Assembly: GCA_963778565.1 (NCBI GenBank)
Contig: CAVZUZ010000012.1
Location: forward strand, 1,400,827 to 1,464,826
DNA length: 64,000 nucleotides
Reading direction: 5' to 3'
Origin: Thermoanaerobaculaceae bacterium
GTDB taxonomy: Bacteria; Acidobacteriota; Thermoanaerobaculia; Multivoradales; UBA5704
Position 1 is the stretch's first letter. Each line of letters opens with the position of its first letter. The notes under the pieces were generated by a model. It saw nothing but the letters and a program-made list of their open reading frames with translations, searched no databases and was not told the DNA's origin. The position numbers and the translations under genes were made by a program. This document shows, one piece after another, positions 15,910 through 56,904 of this stretch.

Positions 15910-17320
<1,411 letters not shown>

Positions 17321-21692: not shown

Positions 21693-23906
21693 GGGCCCTG
21701 CCCATCCGGGTCCTGGCCATGATCTACCCGATCGAGCGGCACGTGGGGCATTGGGCCTGCCCGTCACCTTCGATCGACCTGGTCAGAGTGCTGATGGAGG
21801 GGGAGGACCTCGAGGGCCGGGTGCTGGAGGCCGTCAGACGGCACGATCCGCAGGTGGTCGCCATCATCGGCAAGCGACCCGGAGAGTATCTCGATCTCCT
21901 GGACCGGCTCGCGCCGCGCGTGCCCTCGCTGGCCCGCGTACCGCGGGTCTATCGCTGCCAGAACACGGTGCTCGCGGCGCGCCTGGGAAGCGGCGGGCCG
22001 GCACCGGCCCGGGAGGAGCTGGCCGCCCTCAGCCACTGGTTCGCGTTCGCCTGCGATCCCCGGTTTTCGCTCGTTCTGGTGCAGACCCTGGACGACGTCG
22101 AGCTGATCGCGCGGGCCCTGGCGCCGACCCGGGTCGCGCCATGCCCCTACGGCTACGACCCGGCGGTTTTCGATCCGGAGCTTCCCCGAGCTGCAACGGT
22201 CCGTCGACGTCGGGTGCTACTTCAAGCTGCGCGACGATCCGCGGCGCCGGCGCCTGGTCGAGACCGCCGAGAGGATCTGCCGGCGGCGCGGCTGGACGTT
22301 CCTTTTCGTCGAGGGCCGCTACGGGCACGACTACGCCCGCCAGATCCGCGAGACGAAGGTTTGTCTCCACCTCTCGGGCCTGCGGGAAGTCCCGTTCCGG
22401 ATGTACGAGACGACCGCGCTCGGGGCGCTCTTCCTGACGGATCCGCTCCGTTGCCGGGTCGAGACGCTGTTCGAGCGGGGCCTGGAATACCTCACCTACC
22501 GGCCCGACCTCTCGGACCTCGAGGAAGTCCTGGAATCGGTGCTTCTGGATTCTCGACGGCGGCAGGAGATTGCCCGGCGGGGGAAGGCGAGGGCGGCCGC
22601 GTACGCCTGGCCGGGCATCGCGGAGCGCTGGGTGGTGCCGGCCCTCGATTCGATCCTGGCCGCCACTCCCGCCATCGATCCCACCGAGCACTTCCGGGGC
22701 GAGGTCGGGCCGATCGAGCACCCGGAGCTGCAGGAATGCGGGATCGATATCCGCAACATCGGCTGGACCCTCGGCAACGAGTGCCCCTACCGCTGCACGC
22801 ACTGCTATTCCATGTCCGCTCGGCGCAAGGGCAGGGATCTGTCGGTGCCGCTCGTCGATCGGATCGTCGACCAGTTGGCCCGCAACGGCGTCGAGACGGT
22901 CAACCTGGGGGGCAATGAGCCGCTCTTCACCAACGGGCCGGATCCCCGGCACAGCCTGCTTCACTACATCATCGAGAGGCTGGCCGGCGCGGGGATCAAG
23001 GTCGGCCTCACCACGGCCGGCATCACGCTCGTCCAACTGGTCCGGCACCATCCCGAGGCCGCCCGCCGGCTCAACGACGTCGACGTCAGCCTCGATTCCC
23101 CCTTCGCGGAGGAGCACGACCGCAACCGCGGCGCTCGCCTCTATCCGCAGGCGATCGAGGCGCTGGAGATCTGCGGCAGGTTGGGCGTGGACCGCTCGAT
23201 CATCATGTGCGGCATGAGTTGGAACTTCACCCCTCGCCACCTCCGGGCCCTGGTGAGCGTGGCCCGCCGTCACCAGGCCCACGTCCGGATCAATCCGCTC
23301 AAGCCCGTCGAGCCCGGCCACGCCGCCTCCGCCCTCGAGCCCGGCCAGTACTACGCCGGGTTCTCGCTGCTCATGGACCTGTGCGACCCCGTCGACCTCG
23401 GCGAGCCGCCCCTGGCGACGATGATGCGGTTTCAAGGGGCGCGCGGCTGCCCCTGCGGCCGGACGTCCTTGCGGATCCATTCCATCACGCCCGAAGGCCG
23501 GGTCCCGGTCTCGCCCTGCGTCTACCTGCACGACTACAAGGTCGGCGACCTTGCGACGGACGAGCTGTACGACATCGTCCGGTCACCGCAGTTCCGCTCC
23601 TTCCGGCAACGCAACGCGAACCCGCACGTCATCCCCGGTTGCGAGGGCTGCCCCGTGCTCGACTTCTGCCGGGGAGGATGCGCTGCCCGGTCCTACCTCC
23701 ATCACGCGCACGCGACCGGCGAGCGCTCCCTTTTCCAGCGCGATCCCTACTGCCCGGTGGAGATCGCTCCCGGAGACCCCTTCCCGGTCGAGCCCCGCCT
23801 GCCCCGGGATATGGTCCTCGTCCATCGGGACTATCTCTGCACCTGGATCGGCACGCCCAAGGCCATGGCGCCGGAGGCATCCCGGGAGGCATCTCCATGC
23901 ATGTGA
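21689..23906 (+). CDS. CgeB-like glycosyltransferase fused to radical SAM/SPASM domain (rSAM-3), apparent frameshift near 22190
   Basis: N-terminal frame (from ATG 21689) MRALPIRVLAMIYP...; after a 1-nt offset near 22185-22195 the frame of ORF 22401..23906 is open upstream and reads ...VDVGCYFKLRDDPRRRRLVETAERICRRRGWTFLFVEGRYGHDYARQIRETKVCLHLSGLREVPFRMYETTALGALFLTD (CgeB-family GT motif R.YE..A.GA.L.TD) continuing without stop into CPYRCTHC radical SAM core and Cys-rich SPASM tail. Confidence 0.6.
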
Positions 23907-39381: not shown

Positions 39382-39409
39382 TTGACTTCGCCCTGGCTTA
39401 CGGTAGAAT
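39382..39409 (+). promoter_or_regulatory. sigma-70-like promoter TTGACT-16-TAGAAT upstream of the di-heme cytochrome gene array
   Basis: TTGACT 39382..39387, 16-nt spacer, TAGAAT 39404..39409. Confidence 0.45.
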
Positions 39410-39539: not shown

Positions 39540-41910
39540 ATGGATCTTGGCTCCCTCATCGCCGCGGTAACCCTCCGGCGCGCCCCGGGCGCCGGAGGTC
39601 TGCGCGTCGCGGCGGCCATGCTCTCGTGGCTGTCGTTGACGGCCGGGCTGCTCGGCGGTTGCCGCGCGCGTTGCACGGTGACGTCGGCCGGCATCGGGCC
39701 GGAGCCCGGGCTCGATGGCGGCGTTCCCTACCTGGAGAGCCTGCGCCGCGCCGCCGAGGCCGAGGATCCGGCCGCCCGGGAGGCGTGGGATCGGGACCGG
39801 CGGGAGTACGCGACGTTCCGCCCGGCGCGTCTCGCGGAGCTGCGGACCCATCCTTACCTGCTGCAGTTTCCGCGGCTCACCGACGACCAGCGGCTCGGCC
39901 TGGACGCCTGGTTCCACTGGACCGGCGGCAACCAGCTCACCTGGCGCGACCTCGCCCAGCGCAGCGCCGGCAAGCTGGACCTGCTGCGGCTGCTCGACAA
40001 CAACCTGCTGGACCGCAACGAGCGCTTCGCGAGGTTCGGCCTGATCAACGATCCCGCCGCCCGGCCGCCGGAGCGCGATTCCGCGGGCCGCTGCCGCGTC
40101 GACGCGTACGGTCTGTGCCTCGACCGCGTCGCCGGCGATGCGCCGGCGACCGAGCGCTGGATGGGGCGCCCCTCGGGCATTCTCGGCGTGCGGCTGTTCG
40201 ACAACCCCGACTACCGGCCGGGAACCTGGAACGCGGCCACTCCCTTCCGGCCGGCGCCCGGTTGCCGGCCCGGCGCCCGGCAGGGCCGCGATCCGGCGGC
40301 CACGGCGCGCCAGAGTAACGCCGACTGCTACCAGCCGCCGTATCTGGTGGGCCTGAGCTGCGGCTTCTGCCACATCTCCTTCAACCCGGAGAACCCGCCG
40401 GCCGATCCGGCGCGGCCGGGCTGGGAGAACGTCGCGGGCCTGCTCGGCAACGTCTATTTCCAGGAGGGCCCGCTCTTCGCCTGGCTGCTGAACTTCGGCC
40501 AGGACGCCTTCTACACCGACTACCTGCTGGTCCAGCCGCCCGGCACCAGCGACACCTCGCGCATCGCCACCGACGATCTGGACAACCCCGGCGCCATCAA
40601 CGCGCTGTTCCAGGTGGGCGCCCGGCTCGCTGCGGCCGGGGACGCCGGGGACGAGGAGATGCCGAACGGCCGGCGCCAGCCGGTGCCCCACATCCTGAAG
40701 GACGGCGCCGACTCGGTGGGCCTGCCGCTGGCCGCCCTTCGCGTCTACGTCAACATCGGCATGCTCGGCAACTACTGGCTCAACCAGCACGACGCCTATC
40801 TGCTGCTGGGCGGGGCGCCGCGGCCGCAGGAGCCGTTCCGGGTCGAGCAGGCGATGCGGACGCCCGGCTACGACGGCACCTATTGGTGGAACCAGACCGA
40901 GCTGCGGGTGCCCGACCTGGCGGCGTTCTTCGCCAGCCAGGCGCCGGTGAAGCTGGCGCGGGCGCCCGGGGGTACGGCCTACATGACGGTGGACGCCGCC
41001 GCGCTGGAGCGCGGCAAGGTCGTCTTTGCCGATCACTGCGCCGGCTGTCACTCGAGCAAGCAGCCGTCCGCCGACCGCGAGCAGGATGCCGCGGCCTGGC
41101 GGGAGGAGATGCGCGCCATCGTGCTGCGGCCGGATTTCCTGGAGGGTAACCTTCTCGCCGACGACCGGCGCTATCCCGCGCCGCTGGTGGGGGTGAACCT
41201 CACCCGCAGCATGGCCACCAATGCCCTGGACGGCCACGTCTGGCAGGACTTCTCGTCGCTCACCTACCGCAACCAGCCGTCGCTGGGCGAGGTCGCGCTG
41301 CCGGACCCCTTCCGTTCCGGCGAGAGCCGCGAGCCTCTGCGCCCCGGCCGGCGGGCGCGGCTATTACCGCACCGCCTCGCTGGTCAGCCTGTGGGCCACC
41401 GCCCCCTTCTTCCACAACAACTCGCTCGGTCGTCCCATCCACGATCCCGGCGTCGCCGCGCGGCTGCGCGCCTTCACCGACGCCTCCGAGCAGCTCCTCT
41501 GGCCGGAGCGCCGGACCGATCCGCAAGGCCGGGTCGGCCCCTACGTCAAGCGGACCGGCGACCACGTCACCTGGCTGCCGCTGCCCGACGGCCTGCTCGT
41601 GCCGCTACCGCCGCGCTATCCGGTCAAAATGCTGGGCAACCTGCCGCTGCACGGGCTGGCGCAACGGCTGCCGGCCGGTCTCGCCAAGACCCTGCTCGGC
41701 GACGGCGGCGGCAAGCCGTCCCAGCGCAAGGAACGCATCCTTCGCCGGGTCCTCGGCAACGAGACCCTCCGCCTCCAGCTCAGGAAGCTCCTGCTGGACC
41801 TCAACGCGGCTCCCGATTTCGTCGAGAACAAGGGCCACGAGGCGTTCGTGGCGCGGATCGGCAGCGACGGGGACAAGCAGGCCCTGATCGAATTCATGAA
41901 GACCTTCTGA
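39540..41910 (+). CDS. di-heme c-type cytochrome, CCP/MauG-like or DUF1111-like (paralog A), apparent frameshift near 41330
   Basis: lipoprotein-like signal (LTAGLLGGC); CGFCH and CAGCH heme motifs; frame 0 runs to ...EVALPDPFRSGESREP then the frame of ORF 41221..41910 continues APAGGRGYYRTASLVSLWATAPFFHNNSLG...ALIEFMKTF, matching paralogs (GGGRGYIRPPSLVSVWATAPFLHNNELG). Confidence 0.7.
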
Positions 41911-41925
41911 GACAAGGAGTCACGC

Positions 41926-44817
41926 ATGGCGAGCAAGAAAAAGACCACCGCTGCCGTCGTCGTGTTGGTGATTGGCGCCCTGCTGCTGTTGTGGTGGTGC
42001 GGCCGGCCGGCCGAGGACGAGGCCATGGCGGCCGGCCTGACGGCGAAAGACTTCCATCAGGCGGAGGACGAGGCGGACTACTTCAAGGGCATGGACGACA
42101 GCGGCGAGTACAAGCAGAGCGAGGTGCGGGGCCGCAACACCTGGCTGGTCTGGGGCGGCGGCGACGAGGCCTTCTGGGACTGGCTGGCCAACAACAGCTT
42201 CGGCACCTTCGACCTGCTGAAGACGCTCTCCTCCTACCCTTGCTCGCCGGACCAGCAGAGACGGGCGGCGGAATACGAGAAGAAGTATCAGGCCGCCTGG
42301 GAGGCGGAGGGTTTCGGCGACACCTACGGCTCGTCCACCTACGGCTCGCCCGGCTACGGCAGCACCCCCGCTGGCGGCTACGGCCAACCCGGCTACGGAG
42401 AACCCGGCTACGGCCAGGCCGGCGCCCAGCCTGCCGCCAATTCCAGCCCGGCCGCCGGCGGCGATTACGCCAGCACGCCCGGCGACGACCAGTCCGGCGG
42501 CGATGGCGGCAATGCCCAGCCCGGCTACGTGCAGCCCGGCGCCCAGCCTGCCGGCAACTACAGCCCAGCCGGTGGCTACGGCCAAGCCGGCGGCGGTTAC
42601 GGCCAGCCCGGCGCCCAGCCTGCCGGCAATTACAGCCCGGCCGGCGGTTATGGCCAGGCCGGCGGCGGCTACAGCGACGGCAACAGCTATTACCCCTGGG
42701 ATGGGGTGTGCAAGGACAAGATCTGGCCCGCGCCCGGGAAGCCGGCCTACCGGTATTACAACCGCGACACCCGCTTCTGCTACCAGGGGCTGATCAACGA
42801 GCCCTATTTCGCCAAGCCCCAGGCGCCGGACGAGTTCGGCCTGTGCCTGGACCGCCGCATGCCGGGCACGCCCCCGGACCCCTTCGTGCAGTACTCGGCG
42901 ACGGACAGGAAGGGTCCCTACAAGGGGTACAAGAGGATGATGTACGGCTACCCGTCCGGCATCATGTCGCTGCGGCTCTTCCCCAATCCGGAGTTCAAGG
43001 GCAAGGCGAAGGAGCGGTGGATGGAGGCGATGAAGTCGGACCGCTTCTACCTCGATCCTTCGTTCTACAGCGACCGCAAGCTGATCCGGCCGTACCGGGT
43101 GGGCATGGCGTGCGCCTTCTGCCACGTGGCGCCGCACCCGATGCGCCCGCCCGCCGATCCCGAGAACCCGCAGATGAGCAACCTGTCGGCGAGCATCGGG
43201 GCGCAGTACTTCTGGTTCAGCCGCGTCTTCGGCGCCAACGTGACGTACGACAACTTCGTCTGGCACCTGCTCGACGCGCAGCGGCCGGGGACGGTGGACA
43301 CCTCGTTCATCCCGTCCGACAACCTGGTCAACTCGCGGCCGGTCAACGCCATCTTCCACCTTGGGGCACGGCTCGAAATCGGCAAGGCGCTCGCGCTGGA
43401 GCGGGCGGCCGGCGGCTCCCTGCGGCTGCCCGAGGTCAAGAAGTACAAGGACCAAGATTACGTCTTCGGCGTGCCCCACGTGCTCTGGGACGGCGGCGAC
43501 TCGGTGGGCATCGACGCCGCCCTGACGCGCGTCTACATCAACATCGGCGAGTATCACCAGGAGTGGATCCGCCACATCGGCGTCATCACCGGGTTCGGCA
43601 AGCAGTCGCCGATCACGGTCAAGTCGGCGCAGGCGAGATCGACCTACTGGAATTCCACACAGCAGCGCACCGCGGACCTGGCCTCCTACCTGGTCCGCGC
43701 CAGCCTCCCCATGCCGCTGACGCTGGCGCGGGGGCCGGGACAGCCTGCCGCGCCGCAGGGTCCCCAGGCGCAGACCGCCGCCGCGAGAGCGGCCCACATC
43801 GCGGCCCCGGACCGCGGCAAGGTGGTGTTCGCCGAGACCTGCGCCCGCTGTCATTCGAGCAAGTTGCCGCGGCAGCCGAAGCCGAAGAAGGGGCCCATGC
43901 TCGGCGACAAGGACTGCATCGGCGACAAGTACCTCGAGTGCTGGAACAACTACTGGAATTGGACGGGGACGGCGGCGTTCAAGCGCGAGATGACGCTGAT
44001 GGTGCGGGACCCGAACTTCACGGTGAACAATTACATGTCCAACGACGTCCGCGTCCCGGTCACCTACACCAAGACCGAGATCTGCAGCTCGATGGCCAGC
44101 AACGGCATCGCCGGGCACGTCTGGAGCGACTTCTCCTCGCAGAGCTACAAGGAGCTGCCGTCCGTGGGGCCGATCAACCTCAAGGAGCCGGTCACCGGCC
44201 AGGTCACGCAGTGGCCCACGCCGGGCGGCGGCCGCGGCTACATCCGGCCGCCGTCGCTGGTCTCGGTGTGGGCCACCGCGCCGTTCCTGCACAACAACGA
44301 GCTCGGCCAGTTCTCCGGCGATCCCTCGGTCCAGGGCCGCCTGAAGCTCTTCGACAATTCGATCCGGCAGATGCTGTGGCCCGGGTCGCGCCAGCCCTAC
44401 TATCACAAGACCACCGCCAAGACCGACGTCAAGGTCGTCGACACGGCGGTGCCCTGGATCCTGCGCGCGGGGGCCCGGCTGATCGGGCTGTCCCACGACG
44501 GCACGATACGGCTCGGTCCCGTCCCCAAGGGCACGCCGGTCAACCTGATCGGCAACCTCAACGCCGGCTTCAACGATCCGGCGGCGAGCCCCCTGAAGCT
44601 GGCCTCCAACCTGCTGGGCGTCGCCAGGGACCTCGGGCAGATCCGCAAGAAGCACATGCCGGACGACCAGGCCACGGCCGTGCTCACGCAGCAGATCCCG
44701 AGCCTGCTCGAGATCAGCGCCTGCCCGGACTTCATCGTCAACCGCGGGCACGAGTTCGGAAGCGAGCTGTCGGACCCGGACAAGGAAGCTCTGATCGCGT
44801 ACCTGAAGGCGCTGTAG
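41926..44817 (+). CDS. di-heme c-type cytochrome (paralog B) with N-terminal TM anchor and G/Y/Q-rich low-complexity domain
   Basis: 963 aa; CAFCH and CARCH motifs; GPYLHNG-type motif (WATAPFLHNNELG); C-terminal EALIAYLKAL shared with paralogs. Confidence 0.75.
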   Translation: MASKKKTTAAVVVLVIGALLLLWWCGRPAEDEAMAAGLTAKDFHQAEDEADYFKGMDDSGEYKQSEVRGRNTWLVWGGGDEAFWDWLANNSFGTFDLLKTLSSYPCSPDQQRRAAEYEKKYQAAWEAEGFGDTYGSSTYGSPGYGSTPAGGYGQPGYGEPGYGQAGAQPAANSSPAAGGDYASTPGDDQSGGDGGNAQPGYVQPGAQPAGNYSPAGGYGQAGGGYGQPGAQPAGNYSPAGGYGQAGGGYSDGNSYYPWDGVCKDKIWPAPGKPAYRYYNRDTRFCYQGLINEPYFAKPQAPDEFGLCLDRRMPGTPPDPFVQYSATDRKGPYKGYKRMMYGYPSGIMSLRLFPNPEFKGKAKERWMEAMKSDRFYLDPSFYSDRKLIRPYRVGMACAFCHVAPHPMRPPADPENPQMSNLSASIGAQYFWFSRVFGANVTYDNFVWHLLDAQRPGTVDTSFIPSDNLVNSRPVNAIFHLGARLEIGKALALERAAGGSLRLPEVKKYKDQDYVFGVPHVLWDGGDSVGIDAALTRVYINIGEYHQEWIRHIGVITGFGKQSPITVKSAQARSTYWNSTQQRTADLASYLVRASLPMPLTLARGPGQPAAPQGPQAQTAAARAAHIAAPDRGKVVFAETCARCHSSKLPRQPKPKKGPMLGDKDCIGDKYLECWNNYWNWTGTAAFKREMTLMVRDPNFTVNNYMSNDVRVPVTYTKTEICSSMASNGIAGHVWSDFSSQSYKELPSVGPINLKEPVTGQVTQWPTPGGGRGYIRPPSLVSVWATAPFLHNNELGQFSGDPSVQGRLKLFDNSIRQMLWPGSRQPYYHKTTAKTDVKVVDTAVPWILRAGARLIGLSHDGTIRLGPVPKGTPVNLIGNLNAGFNDPAASPLKLASNLLGVARDLGQIRKKHMPDDQATAVLTQQIPSLLEISACPDFIVNRGHEFGSELSDPDKEALIAYLKAL
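42310..42670 (+). repeat. coding low-complexity repeat region (GYGQ/PGAQPAGNYSPAGGYGQAGGGY repeats)
   Basis: repeated units GYGQPGAQPAGNYSPAGGYGQAGGGY occur at least twice with related degenerate units around them. Confidence 0.7.
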
Positions 44818-44837
44818 CGCACGGAGGGAGATGAGCC

Positions 44838-47800
44838 GTGGCGGAAGAGAGCTGGGAGTACATCGTCGTCGGCTCGGGGGCAGGAGGCGGCCCGGTGGCC
44901 GCGAACCTGGCCCGCGCGGGCTACCGGGTGCTGCTGCTGGAGGCCGGCGGCTCGCCCAACAGCTGGAACTACGACGTGCCGGCGTTCCATCCCGGCGCGT
45001 CGGAAGAGCCCGACATGTCCTGGGCGTACTACGTCCGGCATTACACCGACCAGGAGCAGCAGGAGCGGGACACCAAGTTCGTGGCGAAGAAGAACGGCAT
45101 CTTCTATCCCCGGGCCGGCACCCTGGGCGGCTGCACCGCCCACAACGCCATGGTCTTCCTCTATCCGAGCAACAGCGACTGGAACAACGTCGCCGAGCTG
45201 ATGCAGGACGACTCGTGGAAAGCCGGCAGGATGCGCCGCTACTTCGAGCGGCTGGAGCGCTGCGACTACCGTCCGGTCCAGCGCTTCATCCAGCGGCTGC
45301 TGGGATGGAACCCGAGCCGCCACGGCTTCAGCGGCTGGATGGCCAACAACCAGTCGGACCCCAAGCTGATGGAAGGCGACGACGAGCTGGAGAAGATCGT
45401 CATCGACTCGACGCTCAAAGTCCTTTTCGGCACCTTCAACCTCCGGCGGATCTTCAACCGCATCGTCACCGGCCTGCTCACCAAGCTCGACCCCAACACC
45501 TGGCTGCTGGTACGCAGGAACGCCGAGGGCGTGCGGCTGACGCCGATCTCGGTCAACGGCAGCTACCGCAACAGCTCCCGGGAGCGGCTCCTGGACACCA
45601 TGAAGGAGTTCCCCGACAAGCTCACGATCCGGACGGGGGCCCTGGCCACCCGCGTGCTGTTCGACGGCGAGATGCGCGCCGTCGGCGTCGAGTACCTCGA
45701 GGGCGAGCACCTCTACCTGGCCGACCCGCTGCACGATCCGGACAAGCCGGGCGTGCTGCGGCAGGCGCGGGCGTCGCGCGAGGTCATCCTCGCCGGCGGC
45801 GCGTTCAACTCCCCGCAACTGCTCCAGCTCTCGGGAATCGGCCCGGCCGAGCTGCTCGAGAAGCACGACATTCCGGTGCTGGTGGATCTCCCCGGCGTCG
45901 GCAAGCACCTCCAGGACCGCTACGAGACCTCGGTCGTGCTGGAGATGAAAAAGCCGTTCACGATCCTGAACGGCGCCACCCAGGTCCCTCCGCAGCCGGG
46001 CAAGCCGGTGGATCCCCAGTTCGTGCAGTGGCTGCAGGGCAAGGGCGTCTACACCACCAACGGCTCGGTCCTCGCCATCATCAAGAAGTCGGTGCCCTCC
46101 CGCCCGATCCCCGACCTCTACATCTTCGGCCTGCTGACCAACTTCTACGGCTACTTCCCGGGCTACGCGAAGGTCATCCAGGCGGCCCACTCTTTCTTCA
46201 CCTGGGCCATCCTCAAGGCCCACACCCTCAACACCGCCGGCCTGGTGGCCATCACCTCGAACGATCCGCGGGACGTGCCGTACATCAACTTCCATTACTT
46301 CAACGAGGGCAACGACACCAACGGCGACGATCTCGAGTCGGTGGTCCAGGGCATCCTGTACGCCCGCCAGATCGTCCGGGGCTACGCCCATCTGGTCAAG
46401 CGGGAGACGAAGCCCGGCAACGCCGTCCAGACCGTGGACCAGATCCGCGAATACGTGCGCAACGAGGCCTGGGGGCACCATGCCTCCTGCACCTGCGCCA
46501 TAGGACCGCGGAGCGACCCGGATGCGGTGCTCGACACCAACTTCCGCGTCTATGGAACCAAGAGCCTGAGGGTCGTCGACGCGTCGGCGTTCCCTCGCAT
46601 TCCCGGCATGTTCATTGTCTCGGCGATCTACATGATCGCCGAGAAGGCGAGCGACGTAATCCTGGCGGACGCCGAGCGCGGATCCGCCGGCAACCAGGGG
46701 AAAGAACCCATGAGCAACGACGATTCGGGCAAGACGAAAAAACGCGGGTGCCTGTGGTGGCTGCTGGCGATCGTGCTCCTGCTGGTCGTGGTGTGGGCGA
46801 TCTGCCGCTTCACCGCCGACCGGCCGGTCGACTACAGCTCCGACACCGATCACTTCAAGTACGGCTCGATCGGCAGCGAGCCCGGCGGCTCGCTGCTCAA
46901 TACCGTCGGCGGCCTGCTGCCGCCGGAGCCGATCTTCAAGGTGCTGCCGCAGGTCTGCTGGGACATGATCCCCCCGGGCGGCTACGCCTCCCTCGGGCTG
47001 TTGAGCGAAAAGGGGCACGAGCTGCCGATCGGCGTCTCGCAGCGGTTCCGCCTGGGCTTCGAGCAGGTGGGGCTCAACTGCGCGGTCTGCCACGCCGGCA
47101 CCGTGCGGGCGACGCCCCAGAGCCCGCCGCAGATCATCCTCGGCATGCCTTCGCAACAGCTCGCCCTGCAGGACTTCTTCCGCTTCGTCATCGACTGCAC
47201 GCTCGACCCGCGCTTCACCGCCGACAACCTGTTCGGCATCATGGAGCGGCAGGGGATCGAGCTCGGCGCGCTGAACAAGCTCCTCTACCGCGTGGCGGTG
47301 ATCCCGCAGACGCAGGCGAAGACGCTGGCGCTCCAGCGGCAGCTCCAGTTGCTGCTGAGCCCCGAGCTGACGCAGTGGGGCCGCGGCCGCGTGGACACCT
47401 TCAATCCCTACAAGGGGATGCAGTTCAACTGGCAGCTCCAGCGGCTGTCGCGCCAAGAGCTGACGGCGTCCTCGGACTTCCCGTCGATCTGGAACCAGGC
47501 GCCGCGGGAAAAGGCCAAGATGCACCTCCACTGGGACGGTGACAACGACTCGGTGGACGAGCGCAACCGCAGCGCCTCCCTGGGCGCCGGCGTGACGCCG
47601 GTCACCCTCGATTACGACCGCCTGAACCGGGTCAAGGACTGGATCATGGGGCTGCCGCCGCCGCCCTATCCGTTCGCCATCGACCCGGCGCGGGCGGCGC
47701 GCGGGCGCGCGGTCTACCGCGCCCAGTGCCAGGCGTGCCACGCCGACGACCAGTTCAAGAAAGGGATCATCAACGGCGCGCCGCGCGTCGGCCAGGTGGA

Positions 47801-48230
47801 GAACATCCGCGACATCGGCACGGATCCCTACCGCTTGAACTCCTACACCTACGTCTTCTCCCTCAACCAGTACCAGCTCTATCCGAACTCGAAGTTCCGC
47901 TTCACGCACTTCCGCAAGACCGACGGCTACTCCAACCATCCGCTGGACGGCATCTGGGCGCGCGGCCCCTACCTGCACAACGGCTCGGTGCCCACGCTGC
48001 GCGACCTGCTGGAGCCGCCGGAGGCGCGGCCGAAGGGCTTCTACCGCGGCTACGACGTGTTCGACCAGCAAAAGGTGGGCTTCCTCACCAACGTCGCCGC
48101 GGCCAACGGCCTGACGTTCACCTGGTTCGACACCACGCAGCCGGCCAACGGCAACGGCGGCCACGTCTACGGCGTCAACCTGTCGCCCGAGGACAAGGAC
48201 GCGATCGTCGAGTACATGAAGATGTTCTAG
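44838..48230 (+). CDS. GMC-family FAD oxidoreductase fused via a TM helix to a di-heme c-type cytochrome domain (paralog C)
   Basis: 1130 aa; N-terminal YIVVGSGAGGGPVAANLA and GGCTAHNAM GMC signatures, C-terminal GMC HHASCTCAIG; TM segment CLWWLLAIVLLLVVVWAIC; then CAVCHAG and CQACHAD plus GPYLHNGSVPTLRDLLEP and terminal IVEYMKMF as in paralogs. Confidence 0.8.
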   Translation: MAEESWEYIVVGSGAGGGPVAANLARAGYRVLLLEAGGSPNSWNYDVPAFHPGASEEPDMSWAYYVRHYTDQEQQERDTKFVAKKNGIFYPRAGTLGGCTAHNAMVFLYPSNSDWNNVAELMQDDSWKAGRMRRYFERLERCDYRPVQRFIQRLLGWNPSRHGFSGWMANNQSDPKLMEGDDELEKIVIDSTLKVLFGTFNLRRIFNRIVTGLLTKLDPNTWLLVRRNAEGVRLTPISVNGSYRNSSRERLLDTMKEFPDKLTIRTGALATRVLFDGEMRAVGVEYLEGEHLYLADPLHDPDKPGVLRQARASREVILAGGAFNSPQLLQLSGIGPAELLEKHDIPVLVDLPGVGKHLQDRYETSVVLEMKKPFTILNGATQVPPQPGKPVDPQFVQWLQGKGVYTTNGSVLAIIKKSVPSRPIPDLYIFGLLTNFYGYFPGYAKVIQAAHSFFTWAILKAHTLNTAGLVAITSNDPRDVPYINFHYFNEGNDTNGDDLESVVQGILYARQIVRGYAHLVKRETKPGNAVQTVDQIREYVRNEAWGHHASCTCAIGPRSDPDAVLDTNFRVYGTKSLRVVDASAFPRIPGMFIVSAIYMIAEKASDVILADAERGSAGNQGKEPMSNDDSGKTKKRGCLWWLLAIVLLLVVVWAICRFTADRPVDYSSDTDHFKYGSIGSEPGGSLLNTVGGLLPPEPIFKVLPQVCWDMIPPGGYASLGLLSEKGHELPIGVSQRFRLGFEQVGLNCAVCHAGTVRATPQSPPQIILGMPSQQLALQDFFRFVIDCTLDPRFTADNLFGIMERQGIELGALNKLLYRVAVIPQTQAKTLALQRQLQLLLSPELTQWGRGRVDTFNPYKGMQFNWQLQRLSRQELTASSDFPSIWNQAPREKAKMHLHWDGDNDSVDERNRSASLGAGVTPVTLDYDRLNRVKDWIMGLPPPPYPFAIDPARAARGRAVYRAQCQACHADDQFKKGIINGAPRVGQVENIRDIGTDPYRLNSYTYVFSLNQYQLYPNSKFRFTHFRKTDGYSNHPLDGIWARGPYLHNGSVPTLRDLLEPPEARPKGFYRGYDVFDQQKVGFLTNVAAANGLTFTWFDTTQPANGNGGHVYGVNLSPEDKDAIVEYMKMF

Positions 48231-48247
48231 TGCAGGAGGAACAAGGA

Positions 48248-49739
48248 ATGGCTACCAACCAGAAGACCCGGCGCGTCTGGATCCTGATCGTCGTCGTCGT
48301 CATCCTCGCCTTCTTGGGCTGGCTCGCGTGGTACTCGCTGTTCCGCGAGCCGCCGCAGAAACTGGCCAACGACTCCATCGAGGAGGCCTTCAAGTACGGC
48401 TCCATCTACGGCGAGAACGAAAACGGCGTGCCGTTCTGGATCTGGCTGATCCTGCCCAAGATGTTTCCCGAGTACCTGCCGGCGCCGGGCGGCTACGCCG
48501 AGCTGGGCTTCGCCTGGGAGCCGGGGCGCGAGATGCCGATCGGCTTCACCCGCAGGACCGTCGGCATCGAGCGGGTGGCCATCAACTGCGCCCTCTGCCA
48601 CGTCACCCGGCTGCGCAAGCAGGGCGAGGTGGTGCCCAGGCTGTACCTGGGCGGGCCGGGCCACACCAGTAACGTCCAGGGGTATCAACGGTTCCTGTCC
48701 GCCTGCGCCAGCGACCCCCGCTTCACCTCCGGCAACATCCTCAAGGCCATCGCCGCGGTCTACGAGATGCCGTGGTTCGAGCGGCAGCTCTACCGCTTCG
48801 TATACATACCGTTTACCCGCAAGGCGCTGCTCAAGCAGAAAGCGGACTACGAGTGGACCTTGAGCCGCCCGATCTGGGGGCGCGGCCGGGTCGATCCCTT
48901 CGGCCCGGCCAAGCTGGCAGTTTCTCGGCATCCCCCCGGGCAACGACATCGGCAACTCCGACATGCCGCCGGTCTGGGAAATGAGGCGTCGCGTCGAGAC
49001 CAACAGCGCCTTCCATTGGGACGGGCTCAACACCGACTTCACCGAGGTGGTCCGCGGCTCGGCGCTGGGCGACGGCACCGGCCGCGGGGTGATGTCCGAC
49101 GCTCTGCCGATGCTGGACCGGCTGGAGAAGTGGTTCCTGGACCTGAAGGCGCCGAAGTTCGAGAGCCTCTTCCCCGTGGACCGCGCCCTGGCCGCCGCCG
49201 GCGAGCCGATCTTCCGCCAGCAATGCGCCGACTGCCACGCCTTCGGCGGGCAGAAGACCGGCAAGCCGCTGCTGCTCGACGACGCGCTCTGGGGCGCCCA
49301 GCAGTTCCCCACCGCCCCGCGGCCGCTGTACACCGATCACCACCGCGTCGAGGAATGGGAGACGGCCGACGCCCAGGCGTTCAATGAATACAGCGACGGC
49401 TATCCCTGGCAGTGGACGCACTGGCGCGCCACCGGCGGCTACAACGCCGTGCCGCTGGTCGCCATCTGGATCCGGGGCCCCTACCTGCACAACGGCTCGG
49501 TTCCCTATCTGCCCGAGATGTTCGAGGTGCCCGAGAAGCGCACCAAGGTCTTCTACCGCGGCTTCGACGTGTACGATCCGGTGCGGGTGGGTTTCATTTC
49601 CGAAGGCGCGGAAGCGATGAAGTGGGGCACCCGGTACGACACGGCGGCGCCGGGCAACAGCAACCAGGGGCACCTGTGGGGCACGGACCTCGCGCCGGAG
49701 CAGAAGCGGGCGCTTCTCGAGTTCTTGAAAACCCTCTGA
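48248..49739 (+). CDS. di-heme c-type cytochrome (paralog D), apparent 1-bp deletion near 48925
   Basis: ATG 48248 after AGGAGG; N-terminal TM anchor; CALCHV heme motif; frame breaks after GRGRVDPFGPAKLA; ORF 48963..49739 frame continues GNDIGNSDMPP...CADCHAFGG...GPYLHNGSVPYL...ALLEFLKTL; about 85% identical to paralog E. Confidence 0.75.
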
Positions 49740-49941
49740 AGCTTCGGACATTTCCCTGCCAATCCGGGGGCGGCGCCGGCACGCGGCCGCCCCCTGAGCC
49801 CCGCCTCCGCTTCCTCCATTCCGGTGGTAGAATCGGCTCCCGGATCATCCAGACTACAAGACTGAATGACGCTGGCAGGACGACTTCGAGGGTCGTCTGG
49901 TCCATGAAGATGTTCCAAGTGGTGGCGGGAGGAATCAAGGA

Positions 49942-51426
49942 ATGGCAAAAAACCGGAAAACCAAGCGCATCCGGATCCTGATCGTCATCCTCCTCCTCGG
50001 CTTCCTGGGCTGGGTCGCATGGTACGGGCTGTTCCGCGAGGAGCCGCAGAAGCTGGCCAACGACTCCATCGAAGAGTTCTTCAAGTATGGCTCCATGGGC
50101 ACGGAGGGCTCCACCGGCCTGCCGTTCTGGCTCTGGCTGATTCTGCCCAAGATGTTTCCCGAGTACCTGCCGGCGCCGGGAGGCTACGCCGAGCTGGGTT
50201 TCGTCTGGGAGCCGGGGCGCGAGACGCCGATCGGCTTCACCCGGAAGACCATCGGCGTCGAGCGGGTGGGCATCAACTGCGCCCTTTGCCATACCGCCTC
50301 CGTGCGCAAGGCGGGAGAGGTGGTGCCCAGGGTGTATCTGGGCGGGCCGGGCCACACGATGAACATCCAGGCCTACCAGCGGTTCCTCGAGACTTGCGCG
50401 AACGATGCCCGCTTCACTTCCGGCAACATCCTCAAGGCCATCGCCGCGGTCTATGACATGCCGTGGTTCGAGCGGCAGCTCTACCGTTTCGCATACATAC
50501 CGTTTACGCGCAAGGCGCTGCTCGAGGAGCGCGAGGAATTCAGGTGGACCCTGAGCCGGCCGCTCTGGGGACGGGGCCGGATCGATCCCATGAACCCGGT
50601 CAAGCTCATGATCGGGCACGGCGTGGGGAATACGACCGGCAACTCCGACATGGAGCCGATCTGGAACATGGGGCCGCGGGTGAAAGGCGGCATGGCCTTT
50701 CACTGGAGCGGGATCAACACCGACTTCACCGAGGTGGTCCGCAACTCGGCCTTGGGCGACGGCACCGCCCGCAAGGACATGTCGGACGCTCTCGCGGCGC
50801 TCGACCGGGTGGAGAAGTGGCTCCTCGGCCTGCCGCCGGCGAAATTCGAGAGCCTCTTTCCCGTGGACCGCGCGCTGGCCGCCGCCGGCGAACCGATCTA
50901 CCGCCAGCAGTGCGCGGACTGCCACGCCTTCGGCGGCCGCCAGACCGGCAAGCCGCTGCTGCTCGACGACGAGCTCTGGGGCGCCGGGCAGTTCCCCACC
51001 GCCCCGCGGCCGCTGTACACCGATCCCCACCGCGTCGTGGAGTGGGGCACGGCGGACGCCCAGGCCTTGAACGACTACACCGACGGCTATCCGTGGGCCT
51101 TCACCCACTTCCGCTCCACCGGCGGCTACGTCAACGTGCCGCTGGACGCCATCTGGATCCGGGCGCCCTACCTGCACAACGGCTCGGTACCCTACCTGGC
51201 CGAGGTGCTCGAGGTGCCCGAGAAGCGCACCAAGGTCTTCTACCGGGGCTACGACGTCTACGATCCCGTGCGGATGGGCTTCATCGCCGAAGGTCCGCAG
51301 GCGGCGAGTTGGGGCACCCGGCTCGACACGGCCCAGCGGGGCAACAGCAACCAGGGGCATCTGTGGGGAACGGACCTGGCGCCGGAGCAGAAGCGGGCGC
51401 TGCTCGAGTTCCTGAAGACGCTCTGA
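49942..51426 (+). CDS. di-heme c-type cytochrome (paralog E), intact
   Basis: 494 aa; TM anchor; CALCHT and CADCHAFGG; APYLHNGSVPYL; EQKRALLEFLKTL terminus. Confidence 0.8.
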   Translation: MAKNRKTKRIRILIVILLLGFLGWVAWYGLFREEPQKLANDSIEEFFKYGSMGTEGSTGLPFWLWLILPKMFPEYLPAPGGYAELGFVWEPGRETPIGFTRKTIGVERVGINCALCHTASVRKAGEVVPRVYLGGPGHTMNIQAYQRFLETCANDARFTSGNILKAIAAVYDMPWFERQLYRFAYIPFTRKALLEEREEFRWTLSRPLWGRGRIDPMNPVKLMIGHGVGNTTGNSDMEPIWNMGPRVKGGMAFHWSGINTDFTEVVRNSALGDGTARKDMSDALAALDRVEKWLLGLPPAKFESLFPVDRALAAAGEPIYRQQCADCHAFGGRQTGKPLLLDDELWGAGQFPTAPRPLYTDPHRVVEWGTADAQALNDYTDGYPWAFTHFRSTGGYVNVPLDAIWIRAPYLHNGSVPYLAEVLEVPEKRTKVFYRGYDVYDPVRMGFIAEGPQAASWGTRLDTAQRGNSNQGHLWGTDLAPEQKRALLEFLKTL

Positions 51427-51861: not shown

Positions 51862-54228
<2,367 letters not shown>

Positions 54229-54276
54229 TGCCCTCACCCGTGGTCCCTCGCCGATGTCTCGCCCCTCCGGGGCCGG

Positions 54277-54550
54277 CCCTCACTCCCCCGGCCCCTCTCT
54301 CCCACCTCACACCCGCCCGCCGGGAGAGAGGGGAGACTGGAAAAGACGACATATTTCTGCCTTTACAGTCTCCCTCCTCTCCCGGCCGGGCGGGCGTGAG
54401 GTGGGAGAGGAGGGCCGGGGAGGTGAGGGGCCCCGGCGGCGTCGCCCGCGGTTCGATGTACGACGCCGACCGAATCGGCTGTTTTTTCTCCCTCCTCTCC
54501 CGGTGTGGGGGGAGGGAGGGGCGGGAGAGGAGGGCCGGGGAGGTGAGGGC
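54277..54550. repeat. MITE/REP-like element copy 2 (with an extra partial right arm)
   Basis: gccctcactcccccggcccctctctcccacctcacacccgcccgccgggagagaggggag ... tctccctcctctcccggccgggcgggcgtgaggtgggagaggagggccggggaggtgagggg, then ttctccctcctctcccggtgtgg...gggagaggagggccggggaggtgagggc. Confidence 0.75.
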
Positions 54551-54586
54551 TTCGAAGGGCAGATCCTCTCCTGAAGGACCAACCCC

Positions 54587-55420
54587 ATGAACAATCGCAT
54601 CCCCCTAGAAGACCTCCAACCCCGCCACTTCGGCTGGGCCGTCGAGGACCGCGTCGCCACGGTCACGCTCAACCGGCCGGAGCGCAAGAACCCGCTCACC
54701 TTCGACTCCTACCGCGAGCTGGCCGATACCTTCCGCCGGCTGCGCCACGTCGAGGAGGTCAAGGCCGTGGTCCTGACCGGCGCCGGCGAGAGCTTCTGCT
54801 CGGGCGGGGACGTGCACGAGATCATCGGTCCCCTGGTGAAGATGCGCGAAGAGAAGCGGATGGACCGGCTGCTGGAGTTCACCCGCATGACGGGCGAGCT
54901 GGTGAAGACGATGCGCGCCTGCCCGCAGCCGATCGTCGCGGCCGTCGACGGCATCTGCGCCGGGGCGGGCGCGATCCTCGCCATGGCCTCGGACCTCCGC
55001 CTGGGCACGCCGCGCAGCCGCGTCGCCTTCCTCTTCACCCGCGTCGGGCTCTCCGGCGCCGACATGGGGGCCTGCGCCATCCTGCCGCGCCTCATCGGCC
55101 ACGGGCGCGCCTCGGAGCTGCTCTACACCGGCCGCTTCATGGAGGCCGAGGAGGCCGAGCGCTGGGGCTTCTACAGCCGCCTCGTGCCGCCCGAGAGCCT
55201 CCTCGCCGAAGCCCGCGGCCTCGCCCGCTCGCTCGCCCACGGTCCCACCTTCGCCCACGCCATGACCAAGCGCCAGCTCCACCAGGAGTGGGACATGGGG
55301 ATCGACCAGGCCATCGAGGCCGAGGCGCAGGCGCAGGCCCTCTGCATGCAGACCGAGGACTTCGCCCGCGCCTTCCGCGCCTTCGCGGCGAAGGAGAAGC
55401 CGGTGTTCGAGGGGGATTGA
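54587..55420 (+). CDS. enoyl-CoA hydratase/isomerase (crotonase) family protein
   Basis: 277 aa; [16 protein letters not shown] and [22 protein letters not shown] crotonase oxyanion-hole motifs. Confidence 0.8.
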
Positions 55421-55456
55421 AAGGGTGGAGACAAAATCAAAGCGGTGTGCCCTCCG

Positions 55457-55672
55457 AAGCCCTCACTCCCCTGGCCCCTCTCTCCCGGGGGGAGAGAGGG
55501 GAAACGGAAGAAGAATCTGCCGGATGCTTTTCGTAGGGGCGGGGCTTGTCCCCGCCCGCGACGGTTCAGGGCGGGAACAAGCCCCGCCCCTACGAAGAAA
55601 TTCGTCGGGTCGATTTCTTACTGTTCTCCCTCCTCTCCCTCTGGGAGAGGAGGGCCGGGGAGGTGAGGGCTT
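55457..55672. repeat. MITE/REP-like element copy 3 containing an inner palindrome cgtaggggcggggcttgtccccgccc...gggcgggaacaagccccgcccctacg
   Basis: outer arms gccctcactcccctggcccctctctccc / gggagaggagggccggggaggtgagggc; inner hairpin identical to terminator hairpin at 13497. Confidence 0.7.
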
Positions 55673-55719
55673 CGGAGGGCATACCGATCCGCTGCATGCT
55701 AAAGGGACCTGGGGCCTCC

Positions 55720-56904
55720 ATGCCTGACTCCACCTTCCTCGCCTGGCCCTTCTTCGAGGACGCCCACCGGTCGCTCGCCCAAGATCTCGACGCCTGGTGC
55801 CGGCGCGAAATCGCGCCGCTCGAGGAGGGTAATCTCGATGACACCTGCCGCGAGCTCGTCCGCCGGCTGGGCGCGGGCGGCTGGCTGCGCTGGGCCGTGC
55901 CGGGTCCTTGGGGCGGCGTCCGCGAGCGTCTGGACGTGCGCTCCCTCTGCCTCATCCGCGAGACCCTCGCGCGGTACTCCGGCCTCGCCGACTTCGCCTT
56001 CGCCCTCCAGGGGCTCGGCTCCGGTCCGCTCTCGCTCTTCGGTTCCGAGGCGCAGCGCAGCACCTGGCTGCCCCGCGTGGCCGCCGGAGAAGCCATCGCG
56101 GCCTTTGCACTCTCTGAAGCCGAAGCCGGCTCCGACGTGGCGGCGATGCGGACCAGCGCGCGGCGCGAGGGCGACGCCTGGGTGCTCGACGGCGAAAAGA
56201 CCTGGATCTCCAACGCCGGCCTCGCCGACTTCTACGTCGTCTTCTGCCTCCTGCCCCCCCTGCCGGAAAAAACGGACGAGCGGGCCTTCGGCGCCTTCCT
56301 CGTCGAGGCGGACAACCCGGGTCTCCGCGTCTCCGGGAGGATCGACGTCCTGGCGCCGCACCCGCTGGGCACCGTCGCCTTCGACGGCTGCCGCGTGCCG
56401 GCCGGTGCGATGGTGGGGGAGCCGGGGAAGGGGCTCAAGGTGGCCCTGGCGACGCTCGACGTCTTCCGGCCCACGGTGGGCGCCGCGGCGCTCGGCTTCG
56501 CCCGCCGCGCCCTCGACGAGGCGCTCGGCCACGCCCAAAAGCGCCAAACCTTCGGCAAGCCCCTGGCCGAGCACCAGCTCACCCGGGCGCGGCTCGCCGA
56601 CATGGCCGTCGACGTGGACGCCTCGGCCCTGCTCGTCTACCGCGCCGCCTGGACCCGCGACGCCGGCGCCGAGCGCATCACCCGCGAAGCGGCCATGGCT
56701 AAGCTCTACGCCACCGAGGCGGCGCAGCGGGTGGCCGACGCCGCCGTGCAGCTCCTCGGCGCCCGCGGAGTCGTCGCCGGCGCTCCCGTCGAGCGGCTCT
56801 ACCGCGAGGTCCGCGCCCTGCGCATCTACGAAGGCACCAGCGAAATCCAGCGGCTCGTCATCGCCGGCCAGCTGCTCGCCGGCGTGATGCATCGGGAGGC
56901 CTGA
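55720..56904 (+). CDS. acyl-CoA dehydrogenase
   Basis: about 394 aa from ATG 55720; ACAD motifs ([47 protein letters not shown]). Confidence 0.8.

Follow-up and report, generated by a model that had tools for sequence, protein, structure and literature searches.

To our knowledge, the functionally characterized RoxA-like enzymes other than the rubber oxygenases comprise only PA2077 and PA2078 from P. aeruginosa, the oleate-diol synthase of the so-called FadCcp ('fatty-acid di-haem Ccp') subfamily. These two proteins are adjacent RoxA-like di-haem paralogues, 43% identical, that convert oleate into the 10-hydroperoxide and then the 7,10-diol in the periplasm (PMC4496055). RoxA itself contains (i) haem 1 (C191/C194/H195), which carries O2, and (ii) haem 2 (C390/C393/H394), with H641 as its second ligand (PMC10094197), and RoxC-type lipoproteins devoid of rubber activity have been suggested to oxidize unsaturated fatty acids (PMC10837239). 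The locus described here comprises five successive genes for di-haem c-type cytochromes, A to E, within a 64,000-nucleotide stretch of DNA, hereafter the window, from a Thermoanaerobaculaceae bacterium (Acidobacteriota; GenBank assembly GCA_963778565.1, contig CAVZUZ010000012.1, positions 1,400,827 to 1,464,826 of the forward strand). The third protein, C, is a fusion of a GMC-family flavoprotein with a di-haem domain, so-called C', and together with a small membrane protein, s130, the genes form an operon of about 12 kb with the order s130-A-B-(GMC::C')-D-E. By analogy with PA2077/PA2078, the operon may encode a membrane-bound lipid-oxygenation (oxylipin-type) system, a tentative reading that we place a little below an even chance.

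Fold, haem motifs and membrane topology

Sequence comparison places the five proteins in the RoxA branch of the bacterial CCP/MauG (di-haem peroxidase) fold. The original prediction, made from the DNA sequence alone, had proposed profile searches with CCP_MauG (PF03150) and DUF1111 (PF06537); neither family matches any of the five proteins at E ≤ 0.1, which rules out a canonical CcpA/MauG or DUF1111 identity. The Pfam family PF21419 (RoxA-like_Cyt-c) matches all five, with an E value of 2.6e-16 for C' and weakly, under the gathering threshold, for A and B. The NCBIfam family NF040606, named 'di-heme-cytochrome C peroxidase' and with no demonstrated function found in the literature, has a cut-off of 150 bits that is attained by C (179.5 bits) and, as a borderline case, by E (150.4 bits); the C-terminal fragment of D scores 139.9 bits, B 43.1 bits and the two pieces of A 22-25 bits. 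The rubber oxygenase equivalogs, with cut-offs of 1000 (NF050033), 900 (NF050034) and 900 bits (NF051462), are not reached: against the RoxA/RoxB/RoxC models, C, D and E score at best 39-58 bits, and A and B no more than 12-21 bits. Pairwise identities define a short clade comprising C', D and E (41% between E and C', 76% between E and D) and a long clade comprising A and B (39%), with 22-25% identity between the two clades.

The structure prediction of E, which had also been recommended, yields an AF2 model (pLDDT 89) whose sole significant Foldseek match in the PDB is RoxA (4b2n, E 2.7e-10), and the longest structural alignment of B is likewise with RoxA. By sequence, RoxA (4B2N) is the only solved relative, the alignment spanning the PYxHNGSVP segment and the GN.N.GH...L.EY.KTL tail. 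E H473 aligns with RoxA H641 and the GH ligand position is kept in all five copies, in which the C-terminal haem is predicted to be bis-His. As anticipated, each protein displays exactly two CxxCH motifs in its translation, namely CGFCH/CAGCH in A, CAFCH/CARCH in B, CAVCH/CQACH in C, and CALCH/CADCH in both D and E; both are kept without exception in 47 E-type and 32 B-type homologues, the conservation on which the family assignment had been staked. The common C-terminal tail ...L(I/L)E(F/Y)(L/M)K(T/A)(L/F) is likewise present in all five. In contrast, the (G/A)PY(L/F)HNGS motif first ascribed to every copy holds for three of them: C, D and E contain an exact PYLHNGSVP, as GPYLHNGSVP or APYLHNGSVP, whereas A (APFFHNNS) and B (APFLHNNE) display a degenerate APF(F/L)HNN motif. 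The segment, described at first as CCP/MauG-like, is specifically the so-called 'MauG motif' of the Rox family, PY(F/M/D/L)HNGSVP (PMC10837239), a Rox/FadCcp motif also reported in PMC4496055. Between the two haem motifs, the E family comprises an invariant His-Trp-x-Gly and an invariant Glu.

A hydropathy scan locates an N-terminal transmembrane (TM) helix after a basic N-terminus in B, D and E, while A contains the lipobox LLGGC and C an internal TM helix behind the 612-residue GMC domain. Of the N-terminal membrane anchors that had been assigned to four of the proteins, N-terminal TM helices are retained for B, D and E; C has an internal helix and A a lipoprotein-type signal. Haem c is attached in the periplasm, and this location combined with the anchor topology predicts that the five catalytic bodies face the periplasm; they should be periplasmic, and the GMC domain cytoplasmic. 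The positive-inside rule, applied to the KTKKR-flanked helix of C, likewise puts the GMC domain inside and the di-haem domain outside.

Residues 1-612 of C, a protein of 1130 residues comprising the GMC domain, the TM helix and C', form a flavin adenine dinucleotide (FAD) flavoprotein of the GMC family that matches PF00732 (63.7 bits) and PF05199 (94 bits), both above the gathering scores. The FAD fold begins at residue 7, leaving no space for a signal peptide, and the GSGAGGG motif from residue 12 is invariant in 34 homologues, as are H547 and H548; in this clade, a hydrophobic residue appears to occupy the second catalytic Asn/His position. Comparison with PDB sequences retrieves only generic relatives, namely choline dehydrogenase/oxidase and fatty-acid photodecarboxylase. 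The possibility that the fusion arose from an indel in the assembly is ruled out by (i) a fused ortholog of 1130 residues, 86% identical to C (P0121), on a contig from an independent JGI sample (L008), and (ii) the junction in a soil-metagenome contig (L001), in which GMC and C' are separate genes with an ATGA overlap and which differs by 25 nt from the junction of the window. The fusion is real, since the independent contig encodes it as well, and the flavoprotein::TM::di-haem arrangement represents an unusual design that joins cytoplasmic and periplasmic redox enzymes.

The haem content of the operon bears on the second of two roles first suggested for the array, a peroxidase-like system or a respiratory electron conduit. 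In a conduit, the five di-haem proteins would hand electrons on in series, linking the membrane with an acceptor or donor in the periplasm or outside the cell, as ten c-type haems in one operon, all membrane-tethered, and a predicted bis-His C-terminal haem, typical of electron-transfer haems, could suggest. Nevertheless, the haem density is low (two per 494-963 residues), the cluster is without a NapC/NrfH/CymA-type quinol dehydrogenase, porin-cytochrome, multihaem partner or terminal reductase, the characterized relatives are catalytic oxygenases (RoxA and, by the literature, FadCcp), and it is cytoplasmic flavoproteins that recur as partners, joined in other genomes by lipases and fatty-acid dioxygenases; the conduit is therefore most improbable. 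What stands of the original prediction is a specialized, periplasm-facing multi-gene system built from one CCP/MauG-fold-related family.

Conserved partners and a possible role in lipid oxygenation

The closest relatives of the cluster are encoded by the contigs L001, labelled Thermoanaerobaculia, and L008. L001 comprises a 130-residue membrane protein, A (781 residues), B (914), GMC (614), C' (508) and E (493), and L008 a 130-residue protein, A (789), B (916), GMC::C' (1130) and E (494). The counterpart of s130 is located directly 5' of A in both, with a 4-bp overlap in L001. The conserved unit is thus four di-haem genes, a GMC gene and a small membrane protein; neither contig contains D, which is a copy specific to the lineage of the window, and the genes flanking the cluster vary between these relatives.

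The wider family is extensive. A word-indexed search identifies 1,459 E-type proteins at E ≤ 0.001 among 8,000 candidates scored, and an E-family profile run against representatives at 50% identity retrieves 6,708 clusters at E ≤ 1e-3 and 1,552 clusters at E ≤ 1e-30. In species-representative genomes, 596 of 600 pattern matches were confirmed, corresponding to several hundred loci, and the taxa with the family include Acidobacteriota, Chromatiaceae, many Cyanobacteria, Halomonas and relatives, Planctomycetota, Nitrospirota and Opitutales. The NCBI names of the C'/E homologues are 'cytochrome c' or 'hypothetical protein', and no paper was found on the membrane-anchored C'/E or A/B clades, the flavoprotein fusions or the lipid-enzyme neighbourhoods.

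Gene neighbourhoods were compared in the 80 best species genome loci, using six-frame open reading frames (ORFs) classified by BLAST against the cluster proteins. C'-type and E-type genes occur together in 71 of the 80 loci, an OYE (Oxidored_FMN) gene in 60, mostly immediately 5' of C', and a long A/B-type gene in 41; less frequent partners comprise a cholesterol-oxidase-like GMC (GMC2; 16/80), the GMC type of the window (10/80) and a multi-TM patatin (9/80). Clustering the remaining ORFs all-against-all, with a Pfam check, disclosed additional neighbours, including (i) an animal-haem-peroxidase (An_peroxidase)/COX-like gene at 14 loci, among them Halomonas and Coleofasciculus, (ii) a lipoxygenase at 9 loci (Nostocales), right after E, (iii) a Tle1-like phospholipase at 10 loci (Acidobacteriota), and (iv) a lipase-like α/β hydrolase at 9 loci. 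The search for partner electron donors or acceptors in relatives, proposed at the outset, discloses partners, namely flavoproteins, lipases and fatty-acid dioxygenases, and no electron-donor gene conserved in the cluster.

Several lineages display characteristic arrangements. In Nostocales and relatives (L015, L020, L021, L024, L025, L029, L038 and L041), the lipoxygenase lies directly 3' of the E-type gene, and a lipase and a long A-type di-haem gene are divergent upstream. In the Halomonas group (L069, L074, L075, L078 and L079), the COX-like animal-haem-peroxidase is located between divergent OYE-C' and small-TM-E units. Plasmid pRL11 of Rhizobium johnstonii 3841 (L091, record 526540-538892) encodes in a single run OYE (NADH:flavin oxidoreductase), C', a 143-residue protein, E, a B-like protein of 929 residues, GMC and a patatin-like phospholipase, mostly annotated 'hypothetical protein'. 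On the megaplasmid of Ralstonia solanacearum OE1-1 (L092, RSOE_05410/05415), a cholesterol-oxidase-like GMC::α/β hydrolase of 1150 residues, annotated 'choline dehydrogenase', is followed by an E-type gene whose 628-residue product displays an N-terminal multi-TM extension; the E-type gene is present in 127 Ralstonia megaplasmid records. Further fusions elsewhere include OYE::TM::C'-class (P0402), GMC::patatin (P0170) and multi-TM::E-class (P0363 and P0098).

These neighbourhoods bear on isoprenoid or polyene cleavage, in which, as with RoxA and RoxB, C=C bonds of polyisoprenoid lipids (carotenoids, squalene/hopanoids, polyprenols or quinone tails) would be cut within or close to the membrane, with GMC and OYE processing aldehydes and enones. 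In its favour, E finds its best structural counterpart in RoxA, with which B also aligns over the greatest length, the 'MauG motif' and a bis-His C-terminal haem occur in the Rox family too (PMC10837239), a CrtO-family gene adjoins the cluster in one related locus, and carotenoid- and hopanoid-producing phyla dominate the distribution. Against this, the scores of the RoxA/RoxB/RoxC models (12-58 bits) fall far below cut-offs of 900-1000, the proteins are membrane-anchored and not secreted, the tested RoxC relatives are without rubber activity (PMC10837239), and the genes that recur nearby are those of fatty-acid enzymes (lipoxygenase, COX-like haem peroxidase and phospholipases) instead of isoprenoid genes, which renders cleavage of this kind very unlikely.

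The proposal of lipid oxygenation draws on the adjacent-paralogue pattern of PA2077/PA2078 together with neighbours that comprise lipases, lipoxygenase/COX-like dioxygenases, ene-reductases and alcohol oxidoreductases. Catalysis would take place at the N-terminal haem, which would bind O2 or a hydroperoxide in the manner of RoxA and PA2077, with the bis-His C-terminal haem in a supporting role. The adjacent paralogues C' and E would work together, joined in a heteromer or acting one after the other, on the model of P. aeruginosa, where PA2077 (10S-dioxygenase) is followed by PA2078 (hydroperoxide to diol). On the outer face of the inner membrane, the substrate would be an unsaturated fatty acid or membrane lipid, and on the inner face the tethered flavoprotein would then process the oxygenated product; this flavoprotein is GMC in this cluster (alcohol/carbonyl oxidation) and mostly an OYE ene-reductase in other lineages.

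The chief rival is peroxide detoxification, in which peroxidases anchored in the inner membrane would reduce H2O2 or lipid/organic hydroperoxides on its outer face with electrons from periplasmic cytochromes, and GMC, OYE and lipases would clear damaged lipid, the outcome being repair and not oxylipin synthesis. The nearest NCBIfam family bears a peroxidase name and its cut-off is attained by C and E, the fold is that of bacterial CCP, the invariant His and Glu between the E-family haem motifs are unlike the hydrophobic pocket of RoxA (PMC6797691), OYE, patatin and Tle1-type lipases suit the removal of oxidized acyl chains and enals, and the family occurs commonly in phototrophs, both oxygenic and anoxygenic, as well as in aerobes. 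Nonetheless, we regard detoxification as unlikely, given that the CCP_MauG Pfam model is unmatched, that the structurally closest protein, RoxA, is devoid of peroxidase activity (PMC6797691), that the cluster contains no conserved electron-donor gene, and that the lipoxygenase/COX-like neighbours make hydroperoxides on purpose, as in a pathway rather than in repair.

Five points weigh against lipid oxygenation: (i) the searchable literature yielded no biochemical or genetic data for C'/E or A/B members; (ii) lipase, lipoxygenase, An_peroxidase and cluster-type OYE genes are all absent from the window, so that the lipid link rests on other lineages; (iii) the invariant His/Glu of the E family, compared with the purely hydrophobic distal pocket of RoxA, mean that the chemistry may be peroxidatic and not dioxygenase-type; (iv) a single TM helix cannot carry electrons, so that co-localization is the only purpose that can be offered for the flavoprotein fusion; and (v) PA2078 is active without its haem histidines, which makes the precedent mechanistically unclear (PMC4496055).

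In a broader form that we consider doubtful, C'/E, A/B and the GMC or OYE tethered through one TM helix would constitute an undescribed membrane-spanning lipid-oxygenation machine at the centre of an oxylipin pathway widespread in bacteria. The machine would operate alongside lipoxygenases and COX-like dioxygenases or replace them, and would process a membrane lipid at the outer as well as the inner face of the inner membrane. If true, an oxylipin pathway would span cyanobacteria, rhizobia, Ralstonia, Halomonas, purple sulfur bacteria and Acidobacteriota; bacterial oxylipin biology at present comprises a few enzymes, PA2077/PA2078 and scattered lipoxygenases, and the finding points to a far larger set of apparently uncharacterized RoxA-like di-haem enzymes. 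The occurrence of the cluster in tractable hosts, including Rhizobium johnstonii 3841 (pRL11), Ralstonia solanacearum and Nostoc, makes the hypothesis directly testable, R. johnstonii 3841 combining a complete module with a convenient genetic system.

Gene organization, duplication and sequence integrity

The ORF listing and translation bear out five successive + strand di-haem genes, with sizes between the 494 and 1130 residues first given once A and D are corrected (Table 1). GC content at third codon positions (GC3) is 0.86-0.95 across the five genes, as expected of genuine coding sequence, and a public protein identical to E (P0001) is encoded on a 1.5-Mb public contig. The sigma-70-like promoter proposed upstream of the di-haem genes is confirmed as a consensus match, agreeing with 10 of 12 consensus positions, with one such site found and 0.2 expected in shuffled sequence. 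The small protein s130 has no match in Pfam or NCBIfam, and neither hmmsearch nor hhalign supports its homology with the small TM protein that other phyla encode between C' and E. The idea of a haem-b relay across the membrane by way of the small TM proteins was dropped, as no conserved His pairs were seen by eye.

Table 1. Features of the di-haem cluster (positions in the window)
Feature	Position	Strand	Remarks
s130, small hydrophobic membrane protein, 130 aa	38968..39360	+	Opens the conserved cluster; hydrophobic segments predicted
Sigma-70-like promoter match, TTGACT-16-TAGAAT	39382..39409	+	Between s130 and A; consensus match only
A, long-form RoxA-superfamily di-haem protein, 789 aa after 1-base removal	39540..41910	+	Lipoprotein-type signal LLGGC; frameshift ~41343-41348
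B, long-form di-haem protein, 963 aa	41926..44817	+	N-terminal TM helix, conserved N-domain, disordered linker, di-haem catalytic body
C N-terminal part, GMC-family FAD flavoprotein domain	44838..46673	+	PF00732, PF05199; no signal peptide; predicted cytoplasmic
C TM helix, residues ~638-656	46749..46805	+	Hydropathy scan; KTKKR just before
C', short-form di-haem domain of C	46806..48230	+	CAVCH, CQACH, GPYLHNGSVP, GNGNGGH
D, short-form di-haem protein, extra E copy, 496 aa corrected	48248..49739	+	Frameshift ~48921; start = 48248
E, short-form TM-anchored di-haem protein, 494 aa	49942..51426	+	AF2 model, Foldseek, NF040606

The intergenic gaps A/B, B/C and C/D are 15-20 nt long, and the D/E gap 202 nt (49740..49941), which may represent a duplication scar or the site of an internal promoter. 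The B gene contains tandem DNA repeats at 42321..42672, comprising a 72-nt unit in 2.1 copies and units of 15-21 nt, that encode a G/Y/Q/P-rich linker (residues ~132-257), disordered according to the AF2 model; the B homologues are mostly ~850 residues long, with a shorter linker.

D and E, first taken to be about 85% identical and recently duplicated, share 83% of their DNA and 76.5% of their protein sequence. The D-E Ks of 0.29 equals that between E and its ortholog in L008, the nearest relative, so the duplication is not recent and its recency had been overstated. The Ka/Ks of D versus E is 0.55, and D retains 59 of the 61 family-invariant residues, all 61 being retained in C'.

Neither A nor D is an intact ORF in the window. 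The frame of A changes within ...CTGCGCCCCGGCCGG..., at ~41343-41348 in a CCCCGG run, and D is four bases longer than E at ~48921, where a CCCCCC run adjoins. A reading of the cluster as partly decayed would take both shifts as real, with only B, C and E functional and D a dying duplicate; both are indeed present in the window sequence, D evolves under relaxed constraint (Ka/Ks 0.55 compared with 0.35-0.42 for E orthologs), has lost 2 of the 61 invariant residues and is without an ortholog in the two closest relatives. Decay is quite unlikely, however, considering that both shifts occur at C/G runs, that GC3 remains 0.86-0.91 downstream of them, that the A orthologs of L001 (781 residues) and L008 (789) are unbroken, and that Ka/Ks is equal before and after the shift in D. 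Moreover, at least two unrelated conserved genes of the window are likewise broken by single-base shifts: a RecD2-like helicase gene (13646..15857, - strand) near 14400 and an NtrC-type sigma-54 response regulator gene (15910..~17300, + strand) near 16640. The assembly therefore looks indel-prone (possibly long-read), and the shifts in A and D are probably sequencing or assembly errors rather than gene decay.

Just downstream of the cluster, at 51862..56904, the window encodes an aromatic/acyl-CoA catabolic set comprising a bifunctional salicylyl-CoA 5-hydroxylase/oxidoreductase, an enoyl-CoA hydratase and an acyl-CoA dehydrogenase, which is not retained beside the di-haem cluster in relatives. 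The OYE-domain gene of this set, 788 residues, is ruled out as the cluster OYE, being a genuine salicylyl-CoA 5-hydroxylase (NF006101, 1266 bits) with 29% identity to the cluster OYE. Further upstream, an ORF of 599 residues (22107..23906, + strand) with glycosyltransferase-like, radical SAM and SPASM domains lies in a sugar/polysaccharide region that includes a GDP-mannose dehydratase-like gene, BacA and epimerases.

Comparison with known systems

As far as profiles and motifs indicate, the five proteins are related to RoxA and FadCcp, yet located outside the RoxA/B/C equivalogs and the Pfam CCP_MauG family. C', D and E resemble the FadCcp enzymes PA2077 and PA2078 in (i) two CxxCH motifs, PY(F/L)HNGSVP, a distal C-terminal His ligand and the relationship to RoxA (PMC4496055), (ii) the occurrence of adjacent operon paralogues, likened by the published description, with 43% identity for PA2077/PA2078 and 41% for C'/E, and (iii) a connection with lipids, PA2077/PA2078 acting on unsaturated fatty acids and the wider C'/E family occurring in lipid/oxylipin gene neighbourhoods. 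On the other hand, the published description of FadCcp is that of soluble, Sec-exported proteins of ~630 residues, with 235-245 residues between the haem motifs, whereas C', D and E comprise ~495 residues, are TM-anchored and have 211-216 residues between the haem motifs. A flavoprotein fusion exists here and none is known in Pseudomonas.

The likeness to the Rox enzymes includes the best structural match (4B2N), the 'MauG motif', the putative bis-His C-terminal haem and the ...LIEY(I/L)KTL tail, and the long forms, A and its relatives, resemble RoxC in their lipoprotein signals. The Rox combination of two CxxCH motifs, PYxHNGSVP and a second His is complete in C, D and E; A and B display the degenerate motif with the GH kept. 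Besides these similarities, the identity to Rox is 16-18% and the gene neighbourhoods are different; unlike the soluble, Sec-secreted Rox enzymes, B, C, D and E display TM anchors and A a lipobox. In addition, invariant His and Glu residues of the E family seem to fall at hydrophobic positions of RoxA, a mapping that is uncertain.

Within NF040606, the member WP_166354503.1 from a Bradyrhizobium barranii plasmid is collinear with C' and E through ...PIGF...CxxCH, WG.GR.D, PYLHNGSVP and G.S..GH...L.EYLKTL, with 42-46% identity over the last 100 residues and 22-24% over the N-terminal 300; A and B, unlike C, fall far under the family cut-off. Finally, compared with CCP and the MauG/MbnH/BthA/YhjA group (PF03150), the proteins described here have additional loops and domains and are far greater in size, and their C-terminal haem is predicted to be His/His, as opposed to the His/Met or His/Tyr ligation found in CCP, MauG, MbnH, BthA and YhjA.

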